DNA of 63,991 nt, the filler included, from Stramenopiles sp. TOSAG23-3 (Eukaryota): assembly GCA_900128585.1 (NCBI GenBank). It is 5 parts of 5 records of this genome, joined end to end, with 100 filler letters (N's around TTAATTAATTAA, not from the genome) between each part and the next. Parts side by side here need not be neighbours in the genome. Positions count along the whole stretch, not along the records: positions 13,087 to 26,069 come from LT642653.1; 4 more parts are not named here. One strand, given 5' to 3'. Shown one piece after another: positions 12,987 through 52,244 of this stretch. The translations under genes were made by a program, and so were the position numbers. Each line of letters starts with the position of its first letter. Within the stretch, counting starts at the first letter, position 1. The notes beneath the pieces were generated by a model. That model made no database searches and was not told the DNA's origin. It worked only from the letters and a program-made list of their open reading frames with translations.

Positions 12987-13086
12987 NNNNNNNNNNNNNN
13001 NNNNNNNNNNNNNNNNNNNNNNNNNNNNNNTTAATTAATTAANNNNNNNNNNNNNNNNNNNNNNNNNNNNNNNNNNNNNNNNNNNN
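12987..13086. other. Artificial contig linker (N44-TTAATTAATTAA-N44)
   Basis: Six-frame stop linker; same structure four times in the window. Confidence 0.97.
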
Positions 13087-13496
13087 GGGGGGGGGGGGGG
13101 GGGACGGTGGGAAAGACCCTAAACTAAACTAAACGAGGGGGGGTGGGGAAGGACAACCGAAGAAGAAGAAGTTCAACAGCCTCCCCTTCGTGTCTGTCTC
13201 CCTAAATCTCTTTAATTCTATGACTGAAGCAACCACACCACAAAGGCACACACACTTTCAAGTAAAGGTTTTTCAAAAAAACAATGACAGAAATAAATGG
13301 TTGTTAACAAAACGAGAAAGAAACGACACGTTCAGAGTATCTTACTATTTTCTTTTCGTTAATTCTCTTTCTTCTTTTTTGGTTTGTCTTATATATTATT
13401 TGAAGTAATAAATATTATTGTACTTTTTATATATTTTTATAAATATGAATTATTTCTTCTTATTATTAATTATTATTATTTTTTTTTAGTTTTTTA

Positions 13497-13497
13497 A

Positions 13498-13528
<31 letters not shown>

Positions 13529-13590
13529 AGAAGAAGAAGAAAGAAGAAGAAGAAGAAGAAGAAGAAGAAGAAAGAAGAAGAAAGAAGTGG
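13497..13590. repeat. (GAA)n microsatellite in an AT-rich low-complexity tract
   Basis: Direct reading. Confidence 0.9.
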
Positions 13591-14608
13591 TTTTAATATT
13601 AATATTTTATAGTAGATGGTATTATACTGTATAATAGTCCTATTACATCATTATATAAATAAATATTAAATAATAAATTATTTCTTTTCTTTCTTTCTTT
13701 CTTTCTTCTCTTTCTTCTCTTTCTTTCTTCTCTTTCTTTTCTTTTTAGAGTTATAGAGTACGTATTATTTATTATTTATTATAATATTTATTACATCCTA
13801 CTTTTTATAGCTTATTCCATTTTATTCTTTCTATTTATTATTATTATTATTTTATTAAAATTTAACCGTCGTGATGGTGGGGGGGTGTGGGGGACTTACT
13901 TACATATTATAAAGTAGGACTATGAAGACCGAATATAATAAAAGACAAGGAAGAATAGTATAGACCGATATTCGACTGATCTAATTCTAATTATTAAGAA
14001 ATAATAAAAGAAAGAAGAAAGAAGAAAGAAAGAGAAGAAGAAAGAAAGAGAATATTAAAATACAATGATATTTATATAGTATATTTTATTATACTTCAAT
14101 TGTATTCTAAATTATACTTTTATGAAAAGTGGGGGGGGGGAGGGGGGAGGGGCTGCTTCTTTGCTTTATTATATTTAGACTACTATTATTTATTATTAAA
14201 ATGGATGTTAAAGTTAGGATACTATTTCTATTTCTATATAGATTAGATTAGATTAATTATATTTTTAATTATTACTACTTCTTTCTTAGTGCTATTCTTC
14301 TATTCTTCTCTCTCGAAAAAGAAAAAAAAAAAGAAAAATAATAATATGGTTTTTTCGTTTATTATTATTATATTTTCATTTCATTTTTTATTTGATGATT
14401 TAATTAGACAAGAAAGTAAGTGTTAATTATAAAAAACAATATATATATATGTATGTTATACAAGTTTAAAAAACTGAAACAGAAAGACAAAACGAAATTG
14501 TTTACAAAAGGATAAGGGGGGTGATATAGATATTGCCATTCAAATACACATACATTTACATACTTTCGGCACGTACGTACGTACATACATACACCTTTGT
14601 TTACCAAC

Positions 14609-16336
14609 ATGGCGAAAGGGGGTCGTCATGGGTCCTCCGTGGCCGTGCCGTCGGTGCGCCCGCGTGCTTGCCATGCTTGGGGATTATCACCCATCTATGC
14701 CCCTGGTGCCCGGGCGCCCGTGCGGGGCAAGTGCGCCGCCGTCATTGTCTTTGTCTTTTTGTGCTCGTGCGCCAGCGCCAGCCCTCCCCCCGTCTCGGTC
14801 GTCTCGTCCATGTGGGCGCACGAGCGCGTCCTCGTCTCCGTGGAACCGGGCGCCGTCGTCGCGGACGGCGTCCCGGCGGCCCACAGGGCCCACTTGAACA
14901 AGGGGAGGTTCACGAGGGAAATGCTTGTCAGCATCGCGTACGTCAAGTTCGACCAGGGCCTCCAAGTCAACCGGAACCTGAACTCGTCCTTGCTCCTGGA
15001 CGACGAGGGCTTCTTCCCTGAATCGAAGGAGAACTCCGTGGGCCTGACCGAGCTGGCGTGCACGGGCGGCCGCCCCGCTGCCAGAATACCCTCGTACGAC
15101 CACCGGCAGCCCGCGGAGAACGGTGGGGCGGTGGAGGAGGGGCTGGCCCCGCGGCGTACGTTTTTTCTGGACGAACGGCTCCCGCTGGACACCTTTATCC
15201 CCGCGGAGATGCTCAGTTCCAACTCGCTCATGTGGCTCGCGGCCACGGTCGCGCGGAACGTGTTCAAGCTGAACACGCTGTCGAGCAAAGAATTTTTGGG
15301 GGTGGTGTTTCGGGACCCGGAACGGCTCAACGAGGCCGCGGGGGTTGGGGAGGGGGCATGGGACAACTGCACGGTGACGTTCCTGACCCACGCGGAGCAG
15401 GGGGGCGCCCGGCTGCCCGGGCAGTACGAAAGCGTGGACGGCGCCCCGTTCTTCGGGGCCGTCCCGTTGGAGACCAGGGACCCGATGGCATACGGGGTCC
15501 TGTGGCCGGTCCACACCGAGGTCCGCCAAGCGACGGCCGCCGCGGCGACGTCGTTGGCGCTGTTCACTAAATTTCGAAACGACGAGGCCAGCGGCGGCCA
15601 GCGGTGCACCCCGCTGCCCCACGCTGCCAAGACCCCAGAGGGGGCCGCGGCGCTGCTGGAGACGGGCACGTACGTCGGGTTTCCCGACGAGTTCATCTCG
15701 GACGTGATGCCGAACCTGCTCAAAGGGAGCGTCATGGCCCTCCTGATGCCCATCCTGAAGCTCCTTGGGGTGTTTGGCGGCGACAAGCTGATGACCCCGC
15801 TGATGGACAACATGAGCCAGATGACCGATGGGGGTCTGGTCGGCGCGCTGAACGAACAGATCAGCCCAAAGCTGATATTGGATTTGAACCATGGTATTCC
15901 CCCGGGCGTCCGGGCCGCCATGCCGGAGACCGTGACCCAGGCGATTGCAGAAATGATGGAATCGTACGTGAAGCGGTCCCTACTGGCAGACCTGTACGAC
16001 CCCGTGTCCACGCGCATTGCGAACTCCTTGCCGAGGCGCGTCCCAGGGAACACGGCGGAACGCGTCTCCAAGTCCCTCTCGTCCTACGTCCTGAAGAACG
16101 CGGTCCATACCTTGACCCGGTCGCTGACGCACTCCATCGTCCCGTCGTTGACGCACACGCTTACCCACAACCCGATGCAGGACTACTACTGCTACTACTG
16201 CTTCGAGCACAAGACGTATTGCCAGTACTGCAGCTATGCCCCGAGCCAGCTGTACTACGCCACCTTCTACGCGGGCTACTACAGCACCTACTTTAGCGAT
16301 TATTACAGCGGGGCAGCCCCCCCGTTGGTGCAGTAA
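14609..16336 (+). CDS. GC-rich hypothetical secreted/membrane protein with LTH(S/T)L repeats and a Tyr/Cys-rich C-terminus
   Basis: Long ORF with strong third-position GC bias; hydrophobic AAVIVFVFLCSCASA; C-terminal YYCYYC...YCQYC...YYATFYAGYYSTYFSDYY. Confidence 0.75.
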   Translation: MAKGGRHGSSVAVPSVRPRACHAWGLSPIYAPGARAPVRGKCAAVIVFVFLCSCASASPPPVSVVSSMWAHERVLVSVEPGAVVADGVPAAHRAHLNKGRFTREMLVSIAYVKFDQGLQVNRNLNSSLLLDDEGFFPESKENSVGLTELACTGGRPAARIPSYDHRQPAENGGAVEEGLAPRRTFFLDERLPLDTFIPAEMLSSNSLMWLAATVARNVFKLNTLSSKEFLGVVFRDPERLNEAAGVGEGAWDNCTVTFLTHAEQGGARLPGQYESVDGAPFFGAVPLETRDPMAYGVLWPVHTEVRQATAAAATSLALFTKFRNDEASGGQRCTPLPHAAKTPEGAAALLETGTYVGFPDEFISDVMPNLLKGSVMALLMPILKLLGVFGGDKLMTPLMDNMSQMTDGGLVGALNEQISPKLILDLNHGIPPGVRAAMPETVTQAIAEMMESYVKRSLLADLYDPVSTRIANSLPRRVPGNTAERVSKSLSSYVLKNAVHTLTRSLTHSIVPSLTHTLTHNPMQDYYCYYCFEHKTYCQYCSYAPSQLYYATFYAGYYSTYFSDYYSGAAPPLVQ

Positions 16337-16470
16337 ACGCTGGGGAAACTACAAAAAGGGGTCGTGGGTTGCTTGGGTATTTTCAGTAAACTTAGGACGA
16401 GATACTGGACTTATATTAAAGGCAAGAAAATTGGCTGTTATTTAAGTTTTTAATTTATATTTTACACTCT

Positions 16471-16811
16471 TTACACGCCAATTGCCACAACACACAACAA
16501 CAACAAAAATTCATCTTCTTGGAAAATATTTTTTCTTCTCTTTGGCTCTTGAGTCGTCGTTGATACCAAAGTCGTCGTCGGTTCTTGCGTGGTTTTTGGT
16601 TCTGCTGTCATTGCTGGTTCTTGTGTCGTTGTCGGTTCTTGCGTCGTCGTACGTTCTTGTGCCGTTGTCAGTTCTTGCGCGGTTGTTGTAAGCGCTACTG
16701 ACGTTGTTGGTTCTTGCGTGGTTGTTGTTGGCACCACTGTCATCGTTGTTGGTTCTGCTCTCGTCGTTGGTGCCAAGGTCGTCGTCAGTTCTTGTGTAGC
16801 CAGGGTCCCGC
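16471..16811 (-). CDS. Thr-rich mucin-like fragment (TTTQEP repeats), possibly a terminal exon or relic
   Basis: 18-nt repeats encoding TT(T/A)QEP; no ATG; preceded on the minus strand by TTCTTTTTTATTAG, resembling a splice acceptor. Confidence 0.45.
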
Positions 16812-17646
16812 CTAATAAAAAAGAAGGTCTTAAAATAACAGCCAATTTTCTTGTTAAAAAAAGAAGGTCTAAAAAAAAGAAACCTTGGTGAGTGATTCGA
16901 TTAAATGAAACTATGCATGGTGTGTACCTGTTCTATTCGTTTTGGTGTGAGAAAAATGAATGTTTGTTGTGGTTGATTCTTCTGATACAATTATCAAGGA
17001 CCAGGACATGGAAAAAGAGCGGGGTTTCTACGACAACATCCTAAGGCAGCAGGAGCAGGAGGTGCAGGCTCACCTGGCCGCGGCCCGGGGGGCCAACCCT
17101 CCCTTGACGATAAGGTGTGTTGTTTTTGTAGGACAATTCGTATTTGGGACGGCCAGAAGGAGGGCTCGTTGGTGGTCTATCGTTTTTCTAAAAAGTAGTA
17201 TAATTTAAAAACTTGTGCCGTAACAATAACAATTCAAATCATATTACTCCTGGAAGACAAAACTTGTTGCGTGCTATAGCGTAGGTGGCATTGCTGTTAA
17301 TTCTTATAACATTATTTGATCCTTGGGGGCAGTTAATCTAGTAGAGTACACAGACTTTTGAAAAACAATGTACACATAATTTTTAATGAAAAATTATTCT
17401 TTGATTTCCCTCTCTGCTCTGATTCTTCTCTGATATTTCTGCAAGGTAGTATCAGGACGTGATGAAGGAAAACTATCGTACCATTTGTTATCCCGGGAGT
17501 AAAATTCAAATCTTAAAAGTATAGAAACATCAAAGTAGAAAAGAAGCACCTTCCAGCTAGGACGACCAGCTCTGATTGCTGCCGCTGATGTACAATGATG
17601 ATGCTATATTTTTGAGATATTTTCTTGGAATTTCCTCCTCGCAACC

Positions 17647-20600
17647 TCAAGCCGCGACTTTGCCATGGCAACCAAAGAGACTGCCGCCTCGGAGTTTTGG
17701 TTTCTCAGACAGATCACTAAATATGAATCTATCGCAGCAACCATATTCCGACAAAGTTAAATTTCCATGACTTTGCAAACTCAGAATCTTAGGATTACTG
17801 TTCGGAATTTTTAATTCCAGTTGGCTCAACCTCTTCTCTGGTTCCATTCGAGAGTAGACTTTACTGACAGTTGTGGTCGTTGGATCGCACTGCAGCAGTT
17901 CCTTTCCATCTAAGACGACACTGCACCATCTTTGCTGTTGGCATGCCCATTGAAACGCTTGTTTCATACCTTGCGCATGAGAAATCCCTAATTTCCCCAC
18001 AAGGTTGCTGAAAGTAACTACTCCAAAGTCGGCGGCATTTATCAACTGACGTTTCTCATTCAATGACAACGTTTCGACGCAGGAAGGTTCACATTCGCAA
18101 GCTTTGAGTTTTTGTACTGTGTTCTCATCTGCTGGAGACCCTGGAGACCCTTCCGCATTTGGCTCCGCCTGCCAACCAGAGTGACCTACAGGTATGTTAT
18201 CTGCAGATATTTTTTTCTTTGCAAACACCTGGGCATCGGTTCCTCGTAAGTCTTCGAACGGATCGGGTTCACGGAAAGACATTCTTTTGGGAATAGAGTC
18301 TTCCTCTTCGGCAAAACGCTTTAATTCAAGGGTACTTTCATTGAATGCATTGTGCCAAAAGTCATCAAACCACGAACGCATTCTGCTGGTCAGAACATTT
18401 TCAAATGGTTTCTTTGCTGCATTGTACAGCCTTTTAACACTTCGCTCGAGCCTGACTTTGTCCCTTTGGCTCGGTATGGACACATTAGTTACACTAAGGG
18501 CAGCTTGGAGTTGTGCAGTGCTTATGGCATCCAGCAAGACTACACGCGCTCTGGTGGCGGCTGTTTCAAATCCATTTGTGACCGCTGTGATGATTGCTCC
18601 CTGTTCAACACTATTAAGCGGGCTCTTTTGCGGCGTAAAAAGGTGGACGCGCTTTTCGATCCAGTCGACACGCTCATTTACCAAGGGCAGAAACACGTTT
18701 TCCATTAAAAACCTTACTGAGAGGTCTGTGGTTTCTCCAATCAAGGTGTTGCAAATACTGCGTGCCCGATCAACTGGCTTCCGGGTGAGACTTTGCGACT
18801 GAAATCTCGCCTGTTCGTACCTTCGCGTCCAATTTTCTTGCATCAACATGCGTGTTTGAGATATAACTGCCTTTGCCATATCACCGTAGTCTACGTAGTT
18901 GACCATATCTTCTTCGTAAAGCCGGTATTTCAACTCTTTCATTAGAAAATCCGCGAGAAGATCAAGGTCCCCTTCTTCGTCTCTTGCACGAAGAGAGAGG
19001 GGCTTGCGTCTTTCGTCCAATTTTTGACACGCCGAAATGCTACGGTACAACAGTTGGCTCGTTAAACATTCCATTTCGTAAAGAATTTCTTGGGTGTTGC
19101 CAGTACTCACTTGGACAAGCCTCTCAGCTCCGTACTTAGAGGACACGTTGGCGCCCAAAAATGTCCTCTTTGCTCTTTCGCTCGCTTGATCGTGCCCGTG
19201 CGTCATCACGCAGATTCGCGAAATGTACTGGTCGTTCTCGCGCGGGTGATAGGCGGCGATTGACAGAATCGGGGGCTGGGCATTGTTCGCGTTAAAACAA
19301 AGCCCAACGACTCCATCTTTTCTCTGCCGATGTAAGGTCGACACAGAGTCCTCCATACACTCTTGCTCCAAAAAAGCCATATGCCCTATCGTATCAATGA
19401 GAGTTGCGTGAAGATATCGACGGCTCGCCGGGTTTACTACCACTATGGAAAGCGGGGCCTTGTGGTGATCCACCTCATCTTGATGGGTCCGTTTCTGAAC
19501 GATCACCTTTTTGTCGAGTAAGACCTTCTTTGCAAAGTCCACTTCCTCAACGCACTGCCCATCAATTAAAAGATATGTTTTATTGGTAGACATATCCAGT
19601 CTCGATGTGACACTTACCTTTCTTGCCGTCGTATGCTCTTCCCCCGAGGGCAATTTAAAAGCCATGAGTGAAGTGCCTTCTAGCAGCACAGACATAAAGC
19701 TGTTTACAATCATGGTTTTACCTGCTCCACTGGCGCCGATTAAATGCATTGTTGCCCCGCTCTTTATTTCTTTTACGACATTTGCTGCTTCAGCTTCCAA
19801 CCTATCAAGAAGTGGGATCATGTGGTCATTCATCACAACTTTGTCAAAATTTATTTTCGCCATAACTTCTGCTGCAATTGCTTCAGTTTCATCTACAACA
19901 GCAGAACCATCATTTTTTTGCTGCGTTCGTGCACGATGCTCGTTCAAAATGGTGAGAAAAGCATTGCCGTGTTTCTCGTCTGCGTCTGGACCAAAGACGT
20001 CCGCGAGTGGTGCTGTTGGTGGAATCGGTGAAACGTCATAATCTTTCATCCTACCGTCAATTTCCTGGGGTACATCCGATGGTTCGGCAGTTAATCGGTG
20101 CAATTTTTGCTTTAATGTTCTTTTCATTTTAGCAGCCCGATTCTTGGTGGCCTTTACGATGTCACGAACACGTCGGCCTCCCCCCACGATTCTGGCTCTG
20201 TGCTCAATGGTACTCCCGGGACTGATTCCACTTTTCCTTACGACTTGATCATCGTACAAGGGTTTCTTCTCAAACGTCAACCATTGACCAATTGGGGGGT
20301 ACCCCTCTTTGTCTTGAATGCTCTGCTTCACATCGAAAACCGTATCTTCAGGACAAATATCCAATGCTATTGTTTTTCCACTTCCCAATCGGACAAGTAC
20401 TTGCATGGTGTCGGTTGTTCGTTCATTTTCAAGCAAAGTTTTCCTGCTGCTCGCGGAATGGCTTTTGACGCCATTATAAAATTCCCTCGAGTTACTCAAA
20501 TCGATAACATCTTCTAATGAGAGCGTGCGCTTCCCATCGGGCGATAAGCCATCTAAGACGTTCAATTCTTTTTTGACTTGTTCGTCTTCGATGTCCCCAA

Positions 20601-22194
20601 ACCCAAGGATAAATGTTTTCCATTCTTCAGCTGTTTCTGCATGTTGCTTCTTATAGGCTATCTCTTTTTGTTCTCCGAACCTCTTTAGGGATCCCGACGA
20701 ATGCAAGAATTTTCTTATGTTCTTTGGGATAACTTCGTTGTGATGAAAATCAGTACACCGCAACTGCGCTTCATAATCTCTTTGTTCCGACGAAGGGTTG
20801 CGGTTTTGGAGGACTTCCGCTAGGAACGTATCATCCCACGTGTCACATCCTCCAGTTGGAATTTTTACATCGCCGAAGGGAACAATACCCGTGTCCGATG
20901 CGGGTTTTTGTTTACACAGCAATGGTGTATTGCAGTCGTTACCCGCTCTTGGTGCAGATTTGTTTTTGCTGTATCGTTGCCTTATACATTGCCAAAACCT
21001 GGAGCACATAGGAGTACTTTTTTTAGTCTCGAAACGCGTATGGATAACGCCAGAGACGTTGTGGGAATTGTTGAGTTTTTCAGCATGAGCGTCTTCCTTC
21101 AGTCGGGAATATTCATAACCTTCTTCATCTCCTCCTGGATCTCCGCCTGCTGCTGGCTGTTTCTTCATCATCATGCTGTGACGCTTATATTCGTCTTTCA
21201 AAACGGGCGTAGTGTTGTTGGTAGTAGTACCGGTAGTAGTATTATTATCGTCGTCATCATCGTTCCGTAACCACCATGCTTGTGGGATTTTGGGCGCGGG
21301 GTTATAATCGAAATTTTGCTCTTCCTTTCGGAATCGGTTGGCTCGCTCATGATCATTTCTGGACGATTCTGATACATAAGCATCTACGTCAAACACGCCT
21401 GCAGTTGCATCAGTTTGTGGGAGTGCATCCCCAAGGCTGAAGTACGTATTGCGGTAGACCAAATTGCTCACATTTTTTCTTTCTTCTTCATCGGCGGGGA
21501 CGGCACCGTTGAAGATGTTCAAGTAATGAGCAAGTACGATCGCACCACTTGACGGAAGGGCGAAGCTTTTCGGCTGGGCGTGTACAGATCCAATTCTACT
21601 GAGAATTAGCAAGGTCACTTTAAATATTTTTTTCTTTTCTTTTTTGTCGTTTTTTAATTTTTTTCTTTCTTTTTTTTTTCCATTTGGGGGGGGGGGCGCT
21701 TGCAATGTTGCCAGGGAAGTTGCTGCTCCTAACACGGTAAGAAACAGAAATGCGAAGCCAATCTTCGGTTCAACGTTCGCGTAAACATTTGTTTTCACTG
21801 GGCTCATTTGATTGCTTATCTTTAAACCAGGGCTTGAAGCCTTACGGTTTTGATGAACCGGTTTTGCAGTGCTGCCCCGCGAGAACGGCAGAAGATCTTT
21901 GCTCGAAATGGTCTGCGCGCAAACTTCATCGCAGCGGCTTATGATCTCGCGTCTATTCCAACTGGGTCTACAACGAGAGTACTCCATGAGTGAAGCACTT
22001 CGGCTCATAGATTTCTCTGTGTTGAAGCACGTGAAAAGTTGCACGGTTTTCGAATGTACGGGAGCGCTTTTGGGCGTGAACGCGGCATGAGCGTAACGTT
22101 GCGCGCGCAGTGCCCATGGAGGGCCTATCAAGCTCGCATCGTAAGCATGGCTTAGGACACTTGCAGCAAGTGTTATCAATAACAATTTAAACAT
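17647..22194 (-). CDS. 1515-aa polyprotein-like protein: signal/TM segments - Ubl(GG) - dynamin-like GTPase plus helical region - Ubl(LRGG)
   Basis: 76-aa ubiquitin homologue at 20406-20179; G1 GASGAGKT (19737-19714), LPSG..HTT, LIDTIG (D-G at 19395-19384), VMTHGHD; second Ubl ending TLSEYG...KLRGG at 17683. Confidence 0.8.
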   Translation of the reverse strand: MFKLLLITLAASVLSHAYDASLIGPPWALRAQRYAHAAFTPKSAPVHSKTVQLFTCFNTEKSMSRSASLMEYSRCRPSWNRREIISRCDEVCAQTISSKDLLPFSRGSTAKPVHQNRKASSPGLKISNQMSPVKTNVYANVEPKIGFAFLFLTVLGAATSLATLQAPPPPNGKKKERKKLKNDKKEKKKIFKVTLLILSRIGSVHAQPKSFALPSSGAIVLAHYLNIFNGAVPADEEERKNVSNLVYRNTYFSLGDALPQTDATAGVFDVDAYVSESSRNDHERANRFRKEEQNFDYNPAPKIPQAWWLRNDDDDDNNTTTGTTTNNTTPVLKDEYKRHSMMMKKQPAAGGDPGGDEEGYEYSRLKEDAHAEKLNNSHNVSGVIHTRFETKKSTPMCSRFWQCIRQRYSKNKSAPRAGNDCNTPLLCKQKPASDTGIVPFGDVKIPTGGCDTWDDTFLAEVLQNRNPSSEQRDYEAQLRCTDFHHNEVIPKNIRKFLHSSGSLKRFGEQKEIAYKKQHAETAEEWKTFILGFGDIEDEQVKKELNVLDGLSPDGKRTLSLEDVIDLSNSREFYNGVKSHSASSRKTLLENERTTDTMQVLVRLGSGKTIALDICPEDTVFDVKQSIQDKEGYPPIGQWLTFEKKPLYDDQVVRKSGISPGSTIEHRARIVGGGRRVRDIVKATKNRAAKMKRTLKQKLHRLTAEPSDVPQEIDGRMKDYDVSPIPPTAPLADVFGPDADEKHGNAFLTILNEHRARTQQKNDGSAVVDETEAIAAEVMAKINFDKVVMNDHMIPLLDRLEAEAANVVKEIKSGATMHLIGASGAGKTMIVNSFMSVLLEGTSLMAFKLPSGEEHTTARKVSVTSRLDMSTNKTYLLIDGQCVEEVDFAKKVLLDKKVIVQKRTHQDEVDHHKAPLSIVVVNPASRRYLHATLIDTIGHMAFLEQECMEDSVSTLHRQRKDGVVGLCFNANNAQPPILSIAAYHPRENDQYISRICVMTHGHDQASERAKRTFLGANVSSKYGAERLVQVSTGNTQEILYEMECLTSQLLYRSISACQKLDERRKPLSLRARDEEGDLDLLADFLMKELKYRLYEEDMVNYVDYGDMAKAVISQTRMLMQENWTRRYEQARFQSQSLTRKPVDRARSICNTLIGETTDLSVRFLMENVFLPLVNERVDWIEKRVHLFTPQKSPLNSVEQGAIITAVTNGFETAATRARVVLLDAISTAQLQAALSVTNVSIPSQRDKVRLERSVKRLYNAAKKPFENVLTSRMRSWFDDFWHNAFNESTLELKRFAEEEDSIPKRMSFREPDPFEDLRGTDAQVFAKKKISADNIPVGHSGWQAEPNAEGSPGSPADENTVQKLKACECEPSCVETLSLNEKRQLINAADFGVVTFSNLVGKLGISHAQGMKQAFQWACQQQRWCSVVLDGKELLQCDPTTTTVSKVYSRMEPEKRLSQLELKIPNSNPKILSLQSHGNLTLSEYGCCDRFIFSDLSEKPKLRGGSLFGCHGKVAA

Positions 22195-23407
22195 GTGTGT
22201 GGGTTGGTTAGGTTTAGGTTTGACGATTTGACGATTGATTGGTTATTCTACTAACGGCTTTCTTTCGTTTTTACATGAAGTTTTTACATGTATTTTGATT
22301 TCAGTAGTTAAATACTATTACTTTCGCGGTGTGGGTTTGGTTGTGTGTTTGCATTTGTTTTTTTTTCGCGCAAAAAAATTATTAATGCTATACTAGCAAG
22401 GTGTACCTGGTATTAGATTAGTACAGGTACCGATACTTCGTATATTTTGTTGTCCTCGACGATTATACGGTATTACTTGGTAATACAGGTAGGGCAATAC
22501 TCGGATATTTTTGATGCTGTGTTCCTTTATATGTCAATTGATCTGAAACATATTTTTTGCGCGCTAATTGTGATTGATGTTGTATGCTGTATACCTGTAA
22601 ATTGTTATGTGAAATAATAATTTCCTTGCGACACACGCCTCATACTGTACTACTACGACAGTACAGGAACAAATTCGCACAATTTTTTTGTGTTTGCTCG
22701 CACAATTTTTTTGTGTTTGTTGCAGCACAAATAATTTGGGTTATAAAATTATATTTATTAGTTTGACTACTTGGACTACGAGGATTACTACAAATTATAA
22801 TAGCTTGTAGACGACTAATTCAATACCAAAAGCTCAGGCAGCTGGTAAAAAATATTACTAGGCGACTATTATACTATTCTTTGGAAATAAATTAGTCCTT
22901 GTACCAAAATTAATAGACGATAATAGAGCGTATTATTGCTACTATAAATAATACAGTATACGGTACGAACTGAGAGTAATATTTTTATTATTTACACCTG
23001 GGTACCAAATAATAATACTGAACGAATAATCGTCTTCTCTCTTCTCTCTCTACATGTATTTAAAATGTTCCGCGCCAGTAGTAATTAGTCTAATACTAGT
23101 CCGTGGATTACTACCAACAAGGTACAGGTACCGTACCAGGTATTATACCTGTACCAGGTACCGAGGTACCGTAATACGAGGAGTAGTACAGTAGACCCAA
23201 AAAATATATTTTTTTATTAAAAAAAAAATTATTGTTGTTGTTTTTTTGTTGTTGTCTGTCGTCGTCGTCGTCGTCGTCTAGCGGCGTACGTCTAGTATGA
23301 CATAAATAAGCAATTTTAAATTATATTTTTTACCTAACTGGATTCCGTCCAATAATCCAATCAAACACACAAAGTTTAACAAATCTAACATCGCGCATAT
23401 ACAAGAA

Positions 23408-24304
23408 ATGCCCCCTAAATTCCAACGAAGGGTTTTTCAACCCCCAGGAAAAGAAGAAGCTTCATTATCGGCTAAAACCTACGCCCAAGTTGTCAGGAAT
23501 GTCCTGAACACCACCTCCCCTAGTGCGGCGCAGCCTTTGGCCGAACACGCTTCTGCCGTGCTACAAAGAAAAGGCTATGAAACACCAACCGATCCCGCTC
23601 TTTTATCCATGTCTTCCCCATCAGCTTTGATGAGGGTTAAAAATCTGAAAAACAGAGGAGATGGTTTTAGTCCAGATGACGAAAAGAAGTACATTTATGA
23701 ATACGTTCCTAAATTGAACTCAACCAAGGAAACAACCTTCAGTCAACAGGTAGCTGCCCGCCCAGTCCCGCGTCAGTGGGCGCGAAAGAAGCATAAAAGG
23801 AAAAAGCGCGTACGGCTTCAACACTTGCATTCTCGTAAAACAAAAGACACAAAAAGAAAACAAAATATCGATGATTATGAAGCTATGAAGGAAGCAAAAA
23901 GGCTGAACGAGGCAAGCAGCCTGGAAGATACAACTTCAACGTCCTCCACTCTTTGTGCGTGTAGTTTTATCCTACTGCAGATAGGTGCATCGAACCAACA
24001 ACCTCCAATTCAAATGGTTACCGAAGCAAAGTTTTCAGCTGAGCTGGTTTATCACAATACGCTGAAGGTATGCATCAGAGACCCAACAGTACTCATGAGT
24101 AAAATATTTGACGCTGTGTTTCTTTTCTTCCCTGAGGATCGGAAAAAGTTTAATTGTTTTCTTGGAATTAAAGAGCTCTTACATTCAACAACACGCGTTA
24201 CGGTAGAGAACTTAGGGTTAAATTCAGGCCAAATGCTGAAATTGAAGCGACAATATCGCAACGGATTACCAGGGGGAGGAACACCATGGTCTAAGCTCGC
24301 TTAA
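23408..24304 (+). CDS. Basic hypothetical protein with C-terminal ubiquitin-like domain ending LPGG
   Basis: LMSKIFDA...F...KEL...TVENLGLNSGQMLKL...GLPGG resembles a beta-grasp Ubl; 8-aa tail after the first GG. Confidence 0.6.
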   Translation: MPPKFQRRVFQPPGKEEASLSAKTYAQVVRNVLNTTSPSAAQPLAEHASAVLQRKGYETPTDPALLSMSSPSALMRVKNLKNRGDGFSPDDEKKYIYEYVPKLNSTKETTFSQQVAARPVPRQWARKKHKRKKRVRLQHLHSRKTKDTKRKQNIDDYEAMKEAKRLNEASSLEDTTSTSSTLCACSFILLQIGASNQQPPIQMVTEAKFSAELVYHNTLKVCIRDPTVLMSKIFDAVFLFFPEDRKKFNCFLGIKELLHSTTRVTVENLGLNSGQMLKLKRQYRNGLPGGGTPWSKLA

Positions 24305-24444
24305 TTAAGGAAGTAAAACTTTACTGGACATAAGGAGCAGAAATAAATTCGCGGTACATGAAGTAAATTTTTACAATAGACCTCTTTCCTCTAACAACAT
24401 TAGTCAAAAAACCAAAATATATAGTATGTTTTAAGACTCTCATT

Positions 24445-25431
24445 TTAAATCCAATAGTCATATGCATAATCTATGTAATGTGTACCGCTGTCCTGATGCA
24501 TTTTACGTTTTTTCTTGTTCCTTTCATTTGGAATCATTTTCCTTTCGTCTGTTTTCCCCCATTCCTCAGTCGATCCAGGAGTTTCGTCATCATTCGGCTC
24601 CCCGGGTTGGCCACTGTCTTGCGAGGTGTCACAATGTTCCAAAAACCCATCTTCCGGAGTCTCGTCTAAGCTCTGGTATAATCTGTCACGGAGCCCGCAG
24701 TATTTCGATTTCAGCTTTTCCAAGCTGTCACGGAGATTGTCGATTTCCAATTCGTACCGCTGCTTTTCCGATGCGAGCCTCTCCTTTTCCAATTCGCAAC
24801 CTAACGAGCACACGTTGCTCTTGTTTTCATCATCTACATTCATCTCATTATAAAAGCTGCCATGGATATTGTCGAACGAGCACACGTTGCTCATGTTTTC
24901 ATCATCTATATTCATCTTATTATATTGTTCCGACAGCGAGCACACGTCTTCTTTGAAAACAAATTGCAGCTCTTCCGATTTAAAGTTTGCGCCTTTCAAG
25001 CCACCATGGGTCGACGCGTTTTCCTCTTGCTGCTCTTTTGCCCCCAAATCCCACTTCTTGTAAACCACATCTGTGGCTACTTCCGCAAAAAAATGTTTCT
25101 CTAATCTCTCCTTTTTGTCTGTTCCACTTCCACCGCCCGGTGCAAAATAATCGTATTTGCGGTGTTTATGGGCGCGGCGAATAGCTTTATCCATATCATG
25201 GTACTCCTTTGCTTTATACTGTGTGCGTCCTTGTTCATCCTTATATTCCTCATCTTTGAAGTTCTTAAATTCAAGTTTACGATTAGCACAATCAATTTCA
25301 ACAATTTCATTTCGGATTCTTCCACATTCCAAAACAGTCTGGGAATGGTGGTACTTTTTTGTTTGTATGTCCACAGCTTCCTGCACCATCTCCCACTTTT
25401 CCGGGGAGACACCTTCCCAGTTCTTTATCAT
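24445..25431 (-). CDS. Charged hypothetical protein with internal repeats (YNxMNxDDENxSNVCS) and coiled coil
   Basis: 328-aa ORF; ~72-nt duplication at ~24804-24925; no family recognised. Confidence 0.5.
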   Translation of the reverse strand: MIKNWEGVSPEKWEMVQEAVDIQTKKYHHSQTVLECGRIRNEIVEIDCANRKLEFKNFKDEEYKDEQGRTQYKAKEYHDMDKAIRRAHKHRKYDYFAPGGGSGTDKKERLEKHFFAEVATDVVYKKWDLGAKEQQEENASTHGGLKGANFKSEELQFVFKEDVCSLSEQYNKMNIDDENMSNVCSFDNIHGSFYNEMNVDDENKSNVCSLGCELEKERLASEKQRYELEIDNLRDSLEKLKSKYCGLRDRLYQSLDETPEDGFLEHCDTSQDSGQPGEPNDDETPGSTEEWGKTDERKMIPNERNKKKRKMHQDSGTHYIDYAYDYWI

Positions 25432-26069
25432 GCCTTTGGCTTCGCAGTTGATAAGTTTATCCCACTGCTACCGGAGGGTTTTGCGGTATGATTTCTTTGC
25501 GGTAAAGAGAGGGAATTATTCACCTGTGTAAAAAACAAGCAATAGCAGTTTCAAATGTAGATTCACCCTTAGTATGCCACAAGATTTTTCAAGTCAATTA
25601 TACTTGAGTAAGAATTTCTGTTCCTTTTCTTTCCACGAAGAGAAAAAGAAGTGCGTATCGTAAGAGTACTTCAATTCTATGATTATGATGATTGATGTTA
25701 TTTATTATAAATACGACGATGATGATTTTTTTGGATTTTTAATGATGATGATGATGATGTTGTATGTTATTAAGAAGAGAAGAAACTATTTTTGGGTATA
25801 TAATTTTAGTTCTAGCTAGAATACCACCAGGTATTATAACAGCAGGAATAGTAGTCGTCTAATTACTATTAGTGTAACTAATAAAAAAAAATCGGAAAAA
25901 AGAACGAAGTCCAGCGTAATAATAGTAGCTAGTAATATTTGAGACTAGAAATACTATGAAATTAGGACTCCTCGAATTAATAGACTTTATTTGACTATAG
26001 TAGTAGTACTATATATTTCCGTAGTAAAAAAGCAAAGAAAACGAAGGGAACTGAACTACCGGTACGATA

Positions 26070-26169
26070 NNNNNNNNNNNNNNNNNNNNNNNNNNNNNNN
26101 NNNNNNNNNNNNNTTAATTAATTAANNNNNNNNNNNNNNNNNNNNNNNNNNNNNNNNNNNNNNNNNNNN
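26070..26169. other. Artificial contig linker
   Basis: N44-TTAATTAATTAA-N44. Confidence 0.97.
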
Positions 26170-39118: not shown

Positions 39119-39218
39119 NNNNNNNNNNNNNNNNNNNNNNNNNNNNNNNNNNNNNNNNNNNNTTAATTAATTAANNNNNNNNNNNNNNNNNNNNNNNNNN
39201 NNNNNNNNNNNNNNNNNN
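39119..39218. other. Artificial contig linker
   Basis: N44-TTAATTAATTAA-N44. Confidence 0.97.
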
Positions 39219-40220: not shown

Positions 40221-43200
40221 TCAGAGACTTTTTGCCGTCTGCCTTTGACGGTTAATTTTCTTTAATACTGCCTTATTTTTCACATCTTTCACACTCGTAT
40301 GAGTAAAAATGGGTTTGATTCTTCCACTTGCCATAGACACCCACACATCGAACCTAGCGCGGAATCCGTTGTAATGGACCAAATACTGGTTCAAGAGATC
40401 TTCTTTCTTCGCTTCCACTATTTTGCTGCAGTGCCATACTTTATCCAATGAACAAAATACATCGCAGTAATCTCCAACAGACAGCTCCCCTAACGCTTCT
40501 GTTTCGTACGAGTAAGACTCATTATTGTCGTAACTTTGCTCGGGTGCATCACAACTGGCACGGTCCGGATCCCACTTGTTCATCGAACAGTACCAGGGGT
40601 CATCCGAGTTGATTTGTGCATCATTTGGCAAAAGTCTCCATTTCATACAACTTTCGTGCCCGCACTGCACCCAATTTTTGTGCTGTTTCTCTTCTTTAGG
40701 CTCAACCTTCTGTAAAGACTTGGTGACACTGTCGGTATTATACCTGTGTACATACTTGGCTCTACTGTTTTGTAGCATTTTTTCCAGCTGTTTTATAGCC
40801 AAAGGCACGCTACTTTTCTCTTCTCCGATATTTTTCAAAAGTTCATCAAACAAAGGACTGCCGTAAACGTGCCGGTGTATTTCGCCTTCAAGGAAATCGG
40901 GAAATGCAGCTTTGCAGACGTTTGGCCAAGGTTCATCAAAGCGCTCTTCTTTGAAATAGTCGACAAGGGTTTTTCGATTCAATTTGCTGTACCGACGGCG
41001 ATCGCCTGCTGCAAAGCAGGTTTGAATGCTTGGCAAGCGGACACATCCATACAAATCGTTTGGCATCGACATGTTGTTATTTTGTTCAAACCAATGCAGC
41101 ATTTCTTTGTGCACAGTCTGTTCGTCGTACTCGACGTGAGTGTCAAAGTATGGAGAATCACCTACCGGGAAACCGGGTATGTCCGCCGGCATCGTGCCGG
41201 GGACGTCTGCCATTGGGATGTGCATAGTCCGCGACCGAACTGGCCGGTAAGAATGCAGAGTAAAGAATGTTTCTGTAGAAATGTACAAGGTCAATAGGTC
41301 ACAGAGTGCTTGGGTTCGGGAACCAATTTTGGGACAAATTTGTGGCAGCGTAAATATTTCGTCGCGCAAGCAAGTAAGGGCACGCTTCACATCCTTCATA
41401 GTTTTCCCCCAAGTATTAACCAATCGGTCGATCCTACCAAGCGTGGTAAAAATCTCAAGCCTCTTTTGCATAGAGCGTGCACTTTCTCCCTCACATTCAA
41501 TCTTGGTTTCAGCTTCGTCGCCACTTGCATTTTCTTCATCTTCGCTTGAGCTGGCGTTGTCATCATCGCTATCTGCCCCTTCCTGCACGCCCCCGATATC
41601 ACCGTCTTCCTCCGAATCTTCGTCTTCCTCCGATGACTCCCCACCCGTGTCTTCGTCAAACGACGCGTAACCATCTCCTAGTTCTCGTCTAATTGCTTCC
41701 ATTGCTTTTTTTTTCTCGTCAGATTTAAGCTTTTTCAACGCTTTCTCAAACTTTTTTTTTCCTGCAGCATACGCTGCTTTGTCCTTTTGGAAATGTTGCA
41801 AGTAGGGGGCCCGCGTTTCATCGCTCATTGCCCTCCATTGCTCGCCTCCATACGAGGCAAGCTGAGTCAACTTTAGTTGTGAATTGTCGGCCTTCCACCC
41901 CTCACGTTTGTCTTTCAAGAATAAGAAAAACGCAGTCAAAGGCCGTTTTGGTTCATTCTTTTCTGTAAACGTTTCAATGACAGTTTTCATCGTTTCTTTT
42001 TTCCCTTCAACGAATGCTCTCTCCTTGCGCTTTCTTTCTCTGACTGCTTGCTCTTTCGCTTGTGCTTTAACAATTTGCTGTCGCAACACTTCGATTTTTG
42101 CATCAGCCAAAGATACATCATATGAATAGACGGTTCGCAGCCACTTGTAAGTGACTTCGCTGATTGAACCCCACTCGTTCCAGAGCATATCCATGACTTT
42201 GCCTTCACTTAGGATGTTTACAGGCGCTGCACTAAGCTCCAGGAGCTCCTCGCTTAAACTCGAGCCCTGGTGCTGCTCTTTCTCTGCCAACGAATTGGGG
42301 AGGTACTGTTCACTCAGAAAATGTCGTACTTTGTCCATCGATATCACCAAATTGTGCACCCGTTGCTCGGCAACTCCTTGTGCTTCTGCTTCTGCCGCCG
42401 TTAGAGATTTGGGCTTGCCTATTGTCTGTTTCATAAGAACATGCGGCAACCTCTCTTTCTCGTATTCGACAAACGCGAGGCACTTCGATGCGTATCGACG
42501 CGCCCACTGTGGCAAGCCTGATAACGCCGAGCTTCTAAGCCCATACTTGCCGCAGCGAGTCTTTTCTTCTTCCATGGCAGCTAACCGTACTGCGTTCGCA
42601 TGGTCGATCGCCGCCTGCTTCTTTTGATCTTTTTCCTGCTGTCGCCGCAAGGTTTCCCGTTCAGTGTCCGCCTGCTGCTGCTTCTGTGCCTCCCGAAACT
42701 GTGCAAGGGGTCCGTTGGTGAACGCCTCCATTTTCTTTTGGTAGTCCGCTTTCAATTCGGCTGAGAGTCCCTTAAAGTAGTAGCGTTGGTCTTCTGGCAA
42801 AGTCCTCCACATTTTCCCGGCCAACGAAGCAAGTTCAGTTTTGGCCATTCCAGGGTTGGACTTTTGTATGTCCGCACGTTTTTCTCTGAGAAAGACGAAG
42901 AAGTCGCTCAATGGGCGCTTGGGAGCATTTTCCTTTGTAAACACCTTTTCCCGTTCTTTCAGTTTCTTCAGCGCTGCCTTTTCTTTTGCCATTTGCTTCT
43001 GCTTTCGTTTCTTTGCTTCCGCCTTTTGCCTCCGTTTCATTGTTTTTGGGCTTTCGGCAACAGGCGTATCCGGCACAATTGAAGTTTTTTTCTCGTCCCT
43101 GCAGGCCCTCACAAGCATTCCCAATCTTGAAATAGGAGCGTGGCTATCGCGAATAATTTCTTCGTAAGCCTTCGTCTTTGTTAAGTACAAAAATGATCCT

Positions 43201-52144: not shown

Positions 52145-52244
52145 NNNNNNNNNNNNNNNNNNNNNNNNNNNNNNNNNNNNNNNNNNNNTTAATTAATTAA
52201 NNNNNNNNNNNNNNNNNNNNNNNNNNNNNNNNNNNNNNNNNNNN
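52145..52244. other. Artificial contig linker
   Basis: N44-TTAATTAATTAA-N44. Confidence 0.97.

Follow-up and report, generated by a model that had tools for sequence, protein, structure and literature searches.

We investigated a stretch of 63,991 nucleotides (nt), filler included, from Stramenopiles sp. TOSAG23-3 (NCBI GenBank assembly GCA_900128585.1), which is called the window here. The locus of interest is gene A, on the minus strand of the part that comes from LT642653.1. Its single coding frame carries a domain of the ubiquitin (Ub) family that ends in Gly-Gly (GG), a P-loop GTPase-like domain, a long helical region and a C-terminal segment that again ends in GG, with a short tail behind it. 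This order, and both Gly-Gly sites, are found again in a distant homologue, a metagenome protein of 1035 residues named P0017. An earlier note, made from the sequence alone, had described one polyprotein here in which a dynamin-like GTPase is bracketed by two ubiquitin-like (Ubl) domains. Its description of the sequence was accurate, but it had passed over 596 coding-like codons before the ubiquitin-family domain and a related gene close by, gene B.

The frame of gene A and its ubiquitin-family domain

One uninterrupted frame spans the locus of the earlier note, and a chance frame is an unlikely explanation for it, given 1515 codons in all, 596 of them before the Met of the ubiquitin domain, in DNA of about 45% GC. 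A codon log-likelihood score was trained on nine open reading frames (ORFs) with Pfam domains elsewhere in the window. By this score, which penalises stop-bearing frames and so depends in part on the frame being open, the gene's own frame (frame 0) was the best in 48 of 49 sliding windows. Most of gene A scores 0.1–0.36 bits per codon, as against 0.11–0.24 for the training genes; codons 1–180 score weakly, at 0.00–0.09 bits per codon.

A public sequencing run, X1, provides contigs of a close relative, and the eight matches listed of 262 are 94–99% identical to the window. No bin between 17200 and 22386 has an X1 depth of zero. Over the last 546 coding bases (182 codons), for which the list of differences appears complete, the relative, ~94% identical, differs by 34 changes, which affect 13 codons synonymously and 17 non-synonymously and introduce no stop. 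The ratio of non-synonymous to synonymous substitution rates (dN/dS), a check that the earlier note had proposed, is about 0.35 (0.35–0.40) and points to purifying but relaxed selection. Ordinary eukaryotic genes on the other contigs of the window (SET/bromodomain/HMG, AAA ATPases, tubulin-tyrosine ligase, WD40, RING E3) run as long unbroken ORFs, which marks the source as a microbial eukaryote with few introns. In that organism gene A is a real gene that evolves fast and is restricted to its lineage.

The domain at residues 597–672 matches the Pfam ubiquitin family, PF00240, with 43.4 bits (E 2.9e-11; Pfam cut-off 25.4) and pairs gap-free with residues 1–76 of ubiquitin in PDB chains, its GG falling at 671–672. 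This bears out the exactly 76-residue ubiquitin homologue that had been reported. It is not ubiquitin proper, which would call for near-identity and an intact L8/I44/V70 patch. Compared with 44 ubiquitin units, its identity reaches 43% at best (32/75). It carries G at position 8, T at 44 and R at 70; most of those units show L or P, I and I there, respectively. We take these positions to be the hydrophobic patch used by many deubiquitinases (DUBs). The arrangement is that of a ubiquitin–carboxyl extension protein (Ub-CEP): an in-frame Ub unit whose GG junction lies directly before the linker and the GTPase, with the same junction in P0017.

The N-terminal extension is coding, because its 596 codons are free of stops, because the X1 relative covers it at about 95–99% identity with a single deletion, in frame and of 3 nt, at 21129, and because its codon score from about codon 180 (0.1–0.3 bits per codon) is that of the training genes. 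The ubiquitin domain is therefore internal and not N-terminal. The intergenic DNA at 22634–23127 is almost without X1 cover, an observation that was not used alone as evidence. Within the extension an A/C-rich low-complexity tract (21623–21698, minus strand) encodes Pro and then the Lys-rich cluster. A strongly basic cluster also precedes the Ubl in gene B and in P0017, though the regions are not alignable, and comparison of the gene A extension with the N-regions of gene B and P0017 found no similarity (hhalign E 0.62; BLASTP best E 0.094).

P0017 was recovered when the 843 residues that follow the ubiquitin domain were run by phmmer, exhaustively, against 1.84 billion protein representatives. 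The scan gave three matches, two of them fragments of gene A itself (98% identity) and the third P0017 (E 1.6e-19). This protein consists of about 200 residues, a GGG-ended segment, a linker, the motifs GLSGAGKT..DGIG..THAD, helices and an end that reads ..IIGG plus 7 residues. Its GGG-ended segment sits at the position of the gene A ubiquitin domain and resembles it faintly yet measurably (Smith-Waterman score 38, z 4.2, equalled in 3 of 1000 shuffles). The BLASTP alignment of the two proteins (E 1e-24) spans positions 220–607 of a 919-residue query construct, that is, gene A residues 816–1203, or the G domain and the first half of the helices. In the pairwise alignments the columns of GGG and of the terminal GG..F do not vary. 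Both GG sites, whose conservation the earlier note had suggested checking, thus recur in the sole distant homologue found. Because the order Ubl-GG(G), GTPase, helices and GG-tail recurs there as well, a chimeric assembly, a concern raised at the outset, is an unlikely origin of the junction.

Table 1. Features of gene A and position of gene B (coordinates of the window; pLDDT, predicted local distance difference test; AF2, AlphaFold2)
Feature	Residues	Position	Strand	Basis or remark
Gene A, whole frame	1-1515	17647..22194	-	1515 codons + stop, no internal stop (ORF list, translation)
N-terminal extension	1-596	20407..22194	-	open frame; no Pfam family at E<=10
Hydrophobic segment	145-164	21703-21762	-	sole Kyte-Doolittle segment >=1.6 (windows 144-148)
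Lys-rich cluster	173-189	21628-21678	-	in N-terminal extension
Ubiquitin-family domain (76 aa)	597-672	20179..20406	-	PF00240 match; Met start, GG end, then G673
Linker	673-805	19780..20178	-	basic start; FGP motif common to P0017; no family match
P-loop GTPase-like domain	806-1030	19105..19779	-	motif reading and P0017 alignment
G1, GASGAGKT	820-827	19714-19737	-	sequence motif
LPSGEEHTT	848-856	19627-19653	-	sequence motif
DTIG (DxxG)	934-937	19384-19395	-	sequence motif
THGHD	998-1002	19189-19203	-	G4-like motif
Long helical region	1031-1300	18295..19104	-	first half homologous to P0017
Low-complexity stretch and small helical segment	1301-1420	17935..18294	-	best AF2 blocks (pLDDT 47-53); no family match
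C-terminal segment	1421-1504	17683..17934	-	ends KLRGG; putative second Ubl of the earlier note
Tail behind C-terminal GG (11 residues)		17650..17682	-	translation; 7-residue tail at same place in P0017
Gene B (298-aa ORF)		23408..24304	+	divergent to gene A, 1.2 kb away; P0017 N-region + Ubl module

The GTPase-like domain and the C-terminal region

GASGAGKT, LPSG..HTT, DTIG and THGHD all stand where the earlier note had placed them, and G1 and G3 are intact and invariant between gene A and P0017. The GTPase-like domains of the two proteins are 33% identical, with G1, DxxG and T-H..D invariant in both. The G4-like element is T-H-G-H-D in gene A and T-H-A-D in P0017; it has His for Lys and is one residue longer in gene A. 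Pfam, NCBIfam and PDB matches to the G domain were at the level of the P-loop and all below the cut-offs (ABC, RsgA and AAA families). A PDB search with the two-sequence profile (A2) found P-loop matches only, the best of them an ABC transporter (E 0.0077). An ABC ATPase was considered as the assignment and rejected: the match is confined to 29 Walker A columns, and neither an LSGGQ-type signature nor an hhhhDE Walker B was read, the protein having hhhhDxxG instead. The T-H-x(1,2)-D that follows a hydrophobic strand is invariant in both proteins together with G1 and hhhhDxxG, and the domain therefore fits a TRAFAC-class GTPase rather than an ABC ATPase.

Is the GTPase dynamin-like, as the earlier note proposed? 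For comparison, 81 genomes were used, 12 of which gave 21 dynamin-like matches; after one with four stops was discarded, a set of 20 bacterial dynamin-like G domains was left. As controls, 24 domains were taken out of 62 matches for MMR_HSR1 and 24 out of 455 for ABC_tran. Aligned by hhalign, the two-sequence G domain matched the dynamin-like set with a probability of 89.5 over 156 co-linear columns, spanning switch I, the long insert and DxxG. The controls matched the P-loop alone (27 columns for MMR_HSR1; 29 for ABC, which had the highest raw score). In the ESM Atlas the clusters nearest to the protein after the ubiquitin domain were Dynamin_N clusters (0.88–0.90), and the 10 family-bearing best matches were all of Dynamin_N type. 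On these comparisons the domain is a P-loop GTPase that probably has a dynamin-like build, and membership in the dynamin superfamily is a lead rather than a demonstrated assignment.

In common with that superfamily (bacterial dynamin-like and mitofusin-type proteins), gene A has a P-loop, a switch I of the form LP.G....T, a long insert before hhhhDxxG, a G4-like element of T-x-x-D type and several hundred helical residues behind the G domain. Its GTPase motifs presumably resemble those of mitofusin. Unlike the superfamily, it has a P-loop nearer to the ABC or RsgA types and His for the usual Lys in G4, and no paddle or transmembrane element was identified in its GTPase part. Eight long helices appear in a full-length single-sequence AF2 model, which is of low confidence (pLDDT 35.3). 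A complex prediction with two copies of the G domain and GTP scored 0.00 and gave no answer.

The C-terminal segment ends in KLRGG with an 11-residue tail, as the earlier note had read it. The second Ubl domain that it placed there found no support in Pfam, Ub-profile, hhalign, Atlas or AF2/Foldseek comparisons. No ubiquitin-type Pfam match was obtained at E<=10 in the last 167 or the last 317 residues. A Ub profile built from 45 distinct units gave the true Ub domain 90.3 bits and residues 1421–1504 only 0.6 bits, a score equalled in 143 of 2000 shuffles and no higher than scores among 61 negative-control windows, which reach 1.6. The score of the counterpart in P0017 was equalled in 1077 of 2000 shuffles. 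Alignment to Ub by hhalign covered 10 columns around TLSEY (E 0.094), and the best ESM Atlas score was 0.79. AF2 on the C-terminal 95 residues gave a pLDDT of 43.2, too poor to interpret, and a Foldseek search with that model had a best E of 0.47 and no match at E<=0.001. Weak local matches, co-linear with the Ub profile, occur at helix 1 and at the TLS.Y turn, and there is a local likeness to the last third of ubiquitin.

A GG followed by a short, putatively removable tail is kept in the relatives, with LRGG and 11 residues in gene A and GG and 7 residues in P0017. The C-terminal GG and the [SN][LV]F that comes next align between the two. In the X1 relative KLRGG is identical and the tail differs by one change (C to Y). 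The C-terminal beta-grasp fold is putative, and the GG with its tail is the conserved part of this region.

Homologues, gene B and the surrounding contig

Other searches added no further homologue of the whole protein. A word-index search that included the Ub domain returned multi-ubiquitin proteins only (13 matches among 8000 candidates, with 8–14% coverage), and with the 843 residues after that domain none of 7990 candidates reached E<=0.01. The two-sequence profile likewise found none among 7991; it missed P0017 itself, so this blank says little. Two metagenome pattern scans yielded 505 and 596 pattern matches and a scan of 2.9 million viral contigs another 68, none of which was confirmed.

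Gene B is homologous to the N-terminal part of P0017. It matches residues 11–290 of that protein (BLASTP E 7e-28, 32% over 293 columns; tblastn E 3.75e-26), and about 200 homologous residues precede the Ubl in both. Gene B is free-standing and ends with GGG plus 7 residues. Gene A, P0017 and gene B are therefore three copies that retain the GG(G), though their Ubl bodies have diverged almost past recognition. At 24307–24451, starting 3 nt past the stop of gene B, X1 word depth reaches about 4200 with many loose ends; this is a high-copy repeat or mobile element. Gene B may be a truncated copy, cut by the adjoining repeat.

Two database entries overlap gene A. The EukProt model P0015 (285 aa), noted at 18543–18840 (minus strand), is fragmentary and starts at an internal Met. 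Its unusual C-terminus comes from the +1 frame, 196 nt further downstream; this jump looks like a wrongly predicted intron, and the annotation gives no sign of the fusion architecture. The other entry, P0016, comes from an ENA contig of 646 nt and has 75 aa. It is 98% identical to gene A residues ~1272–1332 and then runs on for 17 residues that no frame of the window encodes, whether through a strain difference, splicing or a chimera.

The contig of gene A covers 13087–26069 (12,983 nt), and only the ORFs on it count as neighbours. Spacers of 100 nt at 12987–13086, 26070–26169, 39119–39218 and 52145–52244, each made of 44 N, a 12-nt six-frame stop linker and 44 N, separate the window into contigs of ~13 kb in descending size. 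The contigs are joined by these spacers, and arguments from gene context across them are therefore invalid. A search for Rfam families and tRNAs that could place the organism found none. Apart from the Ub domain, no known family was recognised in any ORF tested on the gene A contig, and no neighbour carries a domain of a ubiquitin-activating (E1) or ubiquitin-conjugating (E2) enzyme or of a DUB. Just downstream of gene A, at 16471–16845 (minus strand), lies a 124-aa ORF of Thr/Pro/Glu-rich units with an 18-nt periodicity in 6–7 copies. It is a mucin-like repeat protein without a convincing Pfam family. The region 14597–16336 is GC-rich (53%) and has long ORFs on both strands, 579 aa on the plus strand and 458 and 401 aa on the minus strand; the 579-aa ORF has no Pfam family and a Tyr/Cys-rich tail end. 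On another contig, 40221–45308 (minus strand) encodes a 1695-aa chromatin protein in a single ORF, with a bromodomain, SET, two HMG boxes, SDG2_C, zf-CW and Tudor-knot.

Proposed processing at the Gly-Gly junction and its alternatives

Our preferred explanation, held tentatively, is that gene A encodes a ubiquitin-fusion-type precursor of a lineage-restricted large GTPase, which would be processed at the conserved GG junction. The precursor would be made up of an N-region with the hydrophobic segment and the Lys-rich cluster, a divergent Ubl-GG(G), a linker, a divergent P-loop GTPase and a C-terminal region ending in LRGG and the 11-residue tail. The build of the GTPase would be nearest to the dynamin and bacterial-dynamin-like class, with its long insert between switch I and DxxG and the large helical region after the G domain. 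The Ubl-GG junction may act like the natural junctions of ubiquitin and Ubl fusions (Ub-eL40, Ub-eS31, FUBI-eS30 and protist Ub fusions), with a deubiquitinase or a protease of the ubiquitin-like protease (ULP) type cutting after the GG. Such a cut would release the N-region with the Ubl as one fragment that exposes its GG and carries the hydrophobic segment and the Lys-rich cluster. It would also free a GTPase that starts with Gly and may act by nucleotide-dependent self-assembly. The C-terminal GG and its tail would be a second conserved processing motif. Beyond the existence and conservation of the domains and motifs, all of this is inferred.

Precedents for such a junction are known. Ub and Ubl precursors are cut behind the GG by DUBs, and FUBI, in FUBI-eS30, is a divergent Ubl fusion that has retained the GG (PMC8122580). 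Two protist algae have many Ub fusions, with ubiquitin in N-terminal, internal or C-terminal position, as described in PMC6332867. Tables 1–2 of that paper list no GTPase or dynamin among the partners, and both words occur 0 times in its text. Gene A is like the known fusion genes (Ub-eL40, Ub-eS31 and FUBI-eS30, and protist fusions to actin, NiSOD, HMG box and membrane proteins) in having a 76-residue Ub-fold unit, a GG and an unrelated partner in frame. It is unlike them in its partner, a large GTPase, in the ~600 residues before the Ubl and in the second GG with a tail at the protein end. Its Ubl is also only ~40% identical to ubiquitin, so it could not contribute to the ubiquitin pool.

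A number of observations weigh against a processed precursor of dynamin-like build. Generic DUBs might fail to recognise the Ub domain, as the patch positions 8, 44 and 70 are altered. The Ubl tail reads ..RIVGG in gene A, with other residues before the GG in P0017 and gene B, as against LRLRGG in ubiquitin. The conserved GGG could be a mere flexible hinge. In the GTPase part, Dynamin_N (PF00350) was not matched at E<=1 by the whole gene A protein or at E<=10 by the G-domain piece, nor was it matched in P0017. When the P-loop was removed, hhalign gave E 0.084 over 65 columns for the dynamin-like set, 0.28 for MMR_HSR1 and 0.15 for ABC, none of them significant. The Atlas feature overlap was 138–151 of 256, below the 170 typical for true family members. 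The dynamin label of the earlier note is weakly supported, by the Atlas lead and by a co-linear dynamin-like alignment that depends on the P-loop. The C-terminal ~85 residues of gene A and P0017 are not detectably alike beyond the GG end (Smith-Waterman z 0.9). Finally, a family of two members only offers no covariation and no usable structure model.

Does the junction have to be cut at all? Proteins with a lasting UBL domain, for example of Rad23 or parkin type, are a known class, and integral UBL domains usually lose the terminal GG. If gene A were an integral, uncleaved protein of this kind, its Ub fold would be a permanent interaction or regulatory module, the GG(G) a relic or hinge and the C-terminal GG without a special role. 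We regard this as unlikely, though it deserves serious weight. The domain is internal, behind 596 coding-like codons, its likeness to ubiquitin units is limited and its patch positions are altered, and the Ub-eS31 fusion of Giardia is a known uncleaved case (PMC8122580). However, GG(G) has been kept exactly at the end of the fold in three copies though the Ubl bodies have diverged to z <=4.2, and gene B ends a few residues past its GGG, like a modifier precursor. It is mainly this retention that leads us to prefer a processed precursor to a permanent UBL domain, and because GG(G) is kept in three diverged copies, the junction is probably functional. A classical N-terminal Ub fusion is a quite improbable variant, in which translation would begin at the Ub Met (nt 20406), the 596 upstream codons would be a leader or another coding unit, and the Ubl-GTPase would be cut co-translationally like Ub-eL40. 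The Ub domain does have its own Met at exact position 1, codons 1–180 have weak coding scores, the A/C-rich tract lies at 21623–21698, and most natural Ub fusions place Ub N-terminally (PMC6332867). It would have to account for 596 stop-free upstream codons with real-gene-like scores from about codon 180, for X1 conservation above that of intergenic DNA with an in-frame 3-nt indel, and for P0017 and gene B, which likewise have about 200 homologous residues before the Ubl.

The earlier note went further than our preferred explanation. It had both GG sites cut, so as to release a GTPase with a C-terminal beta-grasp Ubl and a free LRGG, which would be E1-activated and conjugated or would serve as a protease-gated immune-effector switch. 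LRGG with a tail is the form of Ub, NEDD8 and ISG15 precursors, and gene A resembles those of NEDD8 and ISG15 in ending with LRGG and a short tail, as does P0017 in keeping GG and tail and gene B in ending with GGG and 7 residues. It differs from them in that the 'modifier' would exceed 800 residues and the beta-grasp of its C-terminal segment is putative. The GG and short tail are kept in gene A, P0017 and the X1 relative, the weak co-linear matches to the Ub profile (helix 1, TLS.Y turn) point the same way, and relaxed constraint, with dN/dS of 0.35–0.40, is compatible with a conflict gene. There is also a bacterial precedent for an enzyme conjugated through its own C-terminal Gly: cGAS of type II CBASS (an anti-phage signalling system based on cyclic oligonucleotides; Cap2/Cap3), which has no beta-grasp and is trimmed or deconjugated by a dedicated isopeptidase (PMC10097602). 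We nevertheless judge the full model improbable, for no beta-grasp test was positive, the C-terminal segment is not conserved between homologues, and no E1, E2 or DUB domain lies among the contig neighbours. In its boldest form, which is no less of a long shot, gene A would be a self-conjugating large GTPase, tethered by its N-region or inactive until a dedicated protease cuts at the Ubl-GG. The tail would then be trimmed and LRGG would be E1-activated and attached to pathogen or organelle surfaces, and gene B would be a free-standing member of modifier type. With the same small probability this would make it a eukaryotic counterpart of CBASS cGAS conjugation merged with ISG15-like chemistry. 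CBASS cGAS is the nearest analogue of this self-conjugation, by functional analogy only, and unlike the gene A contig the bacterial operon has E1/E2 and JAB genes beside the enzyme.

Could the gene belong to something other than the host, or not be a gene at all? A selfish element or viral polyprotein, on a mobile or viral 13-kb contig, could use a host-type ubiquitin as a built-in cleavage site, and ubiquitin insertions do occur in pestivirus polyproteins. The contig ORFs are without known families besides the Ub domain, a high-copy repeat abuts gene B and the family is extremely sparse. This is very unlikely all the same, as the pattern scan of 2.9 million viral contigs gave no relative, no replication, capsid or integrase gene was seen on the contig, codon scores equal those of genes on other contigs and dN/dS is below 1. 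It is hardly credible that the gene is an artefact, whether a pseudogene, a frame open by chance or a chimera of assembly. The window does consist of short contigs joined by spacers, the EukProt gene model is fragmentary and the Ub-GTPase junction is unbridged among the X1 matches listed (8 of 262). Set against this are 1515 open codons, a relative whose copy is free of stops and gives dN/dS of 0.35, an independent protein, P0017, with the domains in identical order, and X1 depth above zero across 17200–22386.

No published architecture of Ubl-GG, large GTPase and GG-tail was found in full-text literature searches; supplementary lists may name further fusion partners. Ubiquitin fusions and large GTPases are known kinds; the novelty lies in joining them, in the orphan family and in the retention of GG at both ends. 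The most exciting part of the case of gene A is unproven, and the family has two members only. Making two proteins from a single frame by ubiquitin fusion is a known device, of which protists offer many odd examples, but neither a dynamin-type large GTPase as partner nor a Gly-Gly conserved at both ends of an enzyme was found in the literature searched. The public gene model of the gene A locus is fragmentary, and automated annotation is therefore missing such fusions. If the junction is cut, gene A would offer a simple, testable example of an enzyme of membrane-remodelling type whose release is gated by a protease. If the C-terminal GG serves for conjugation, gene A would encode the first effector enzyme of a eukaryote to attach itself in the manner of a ubiquitin-like modifier.

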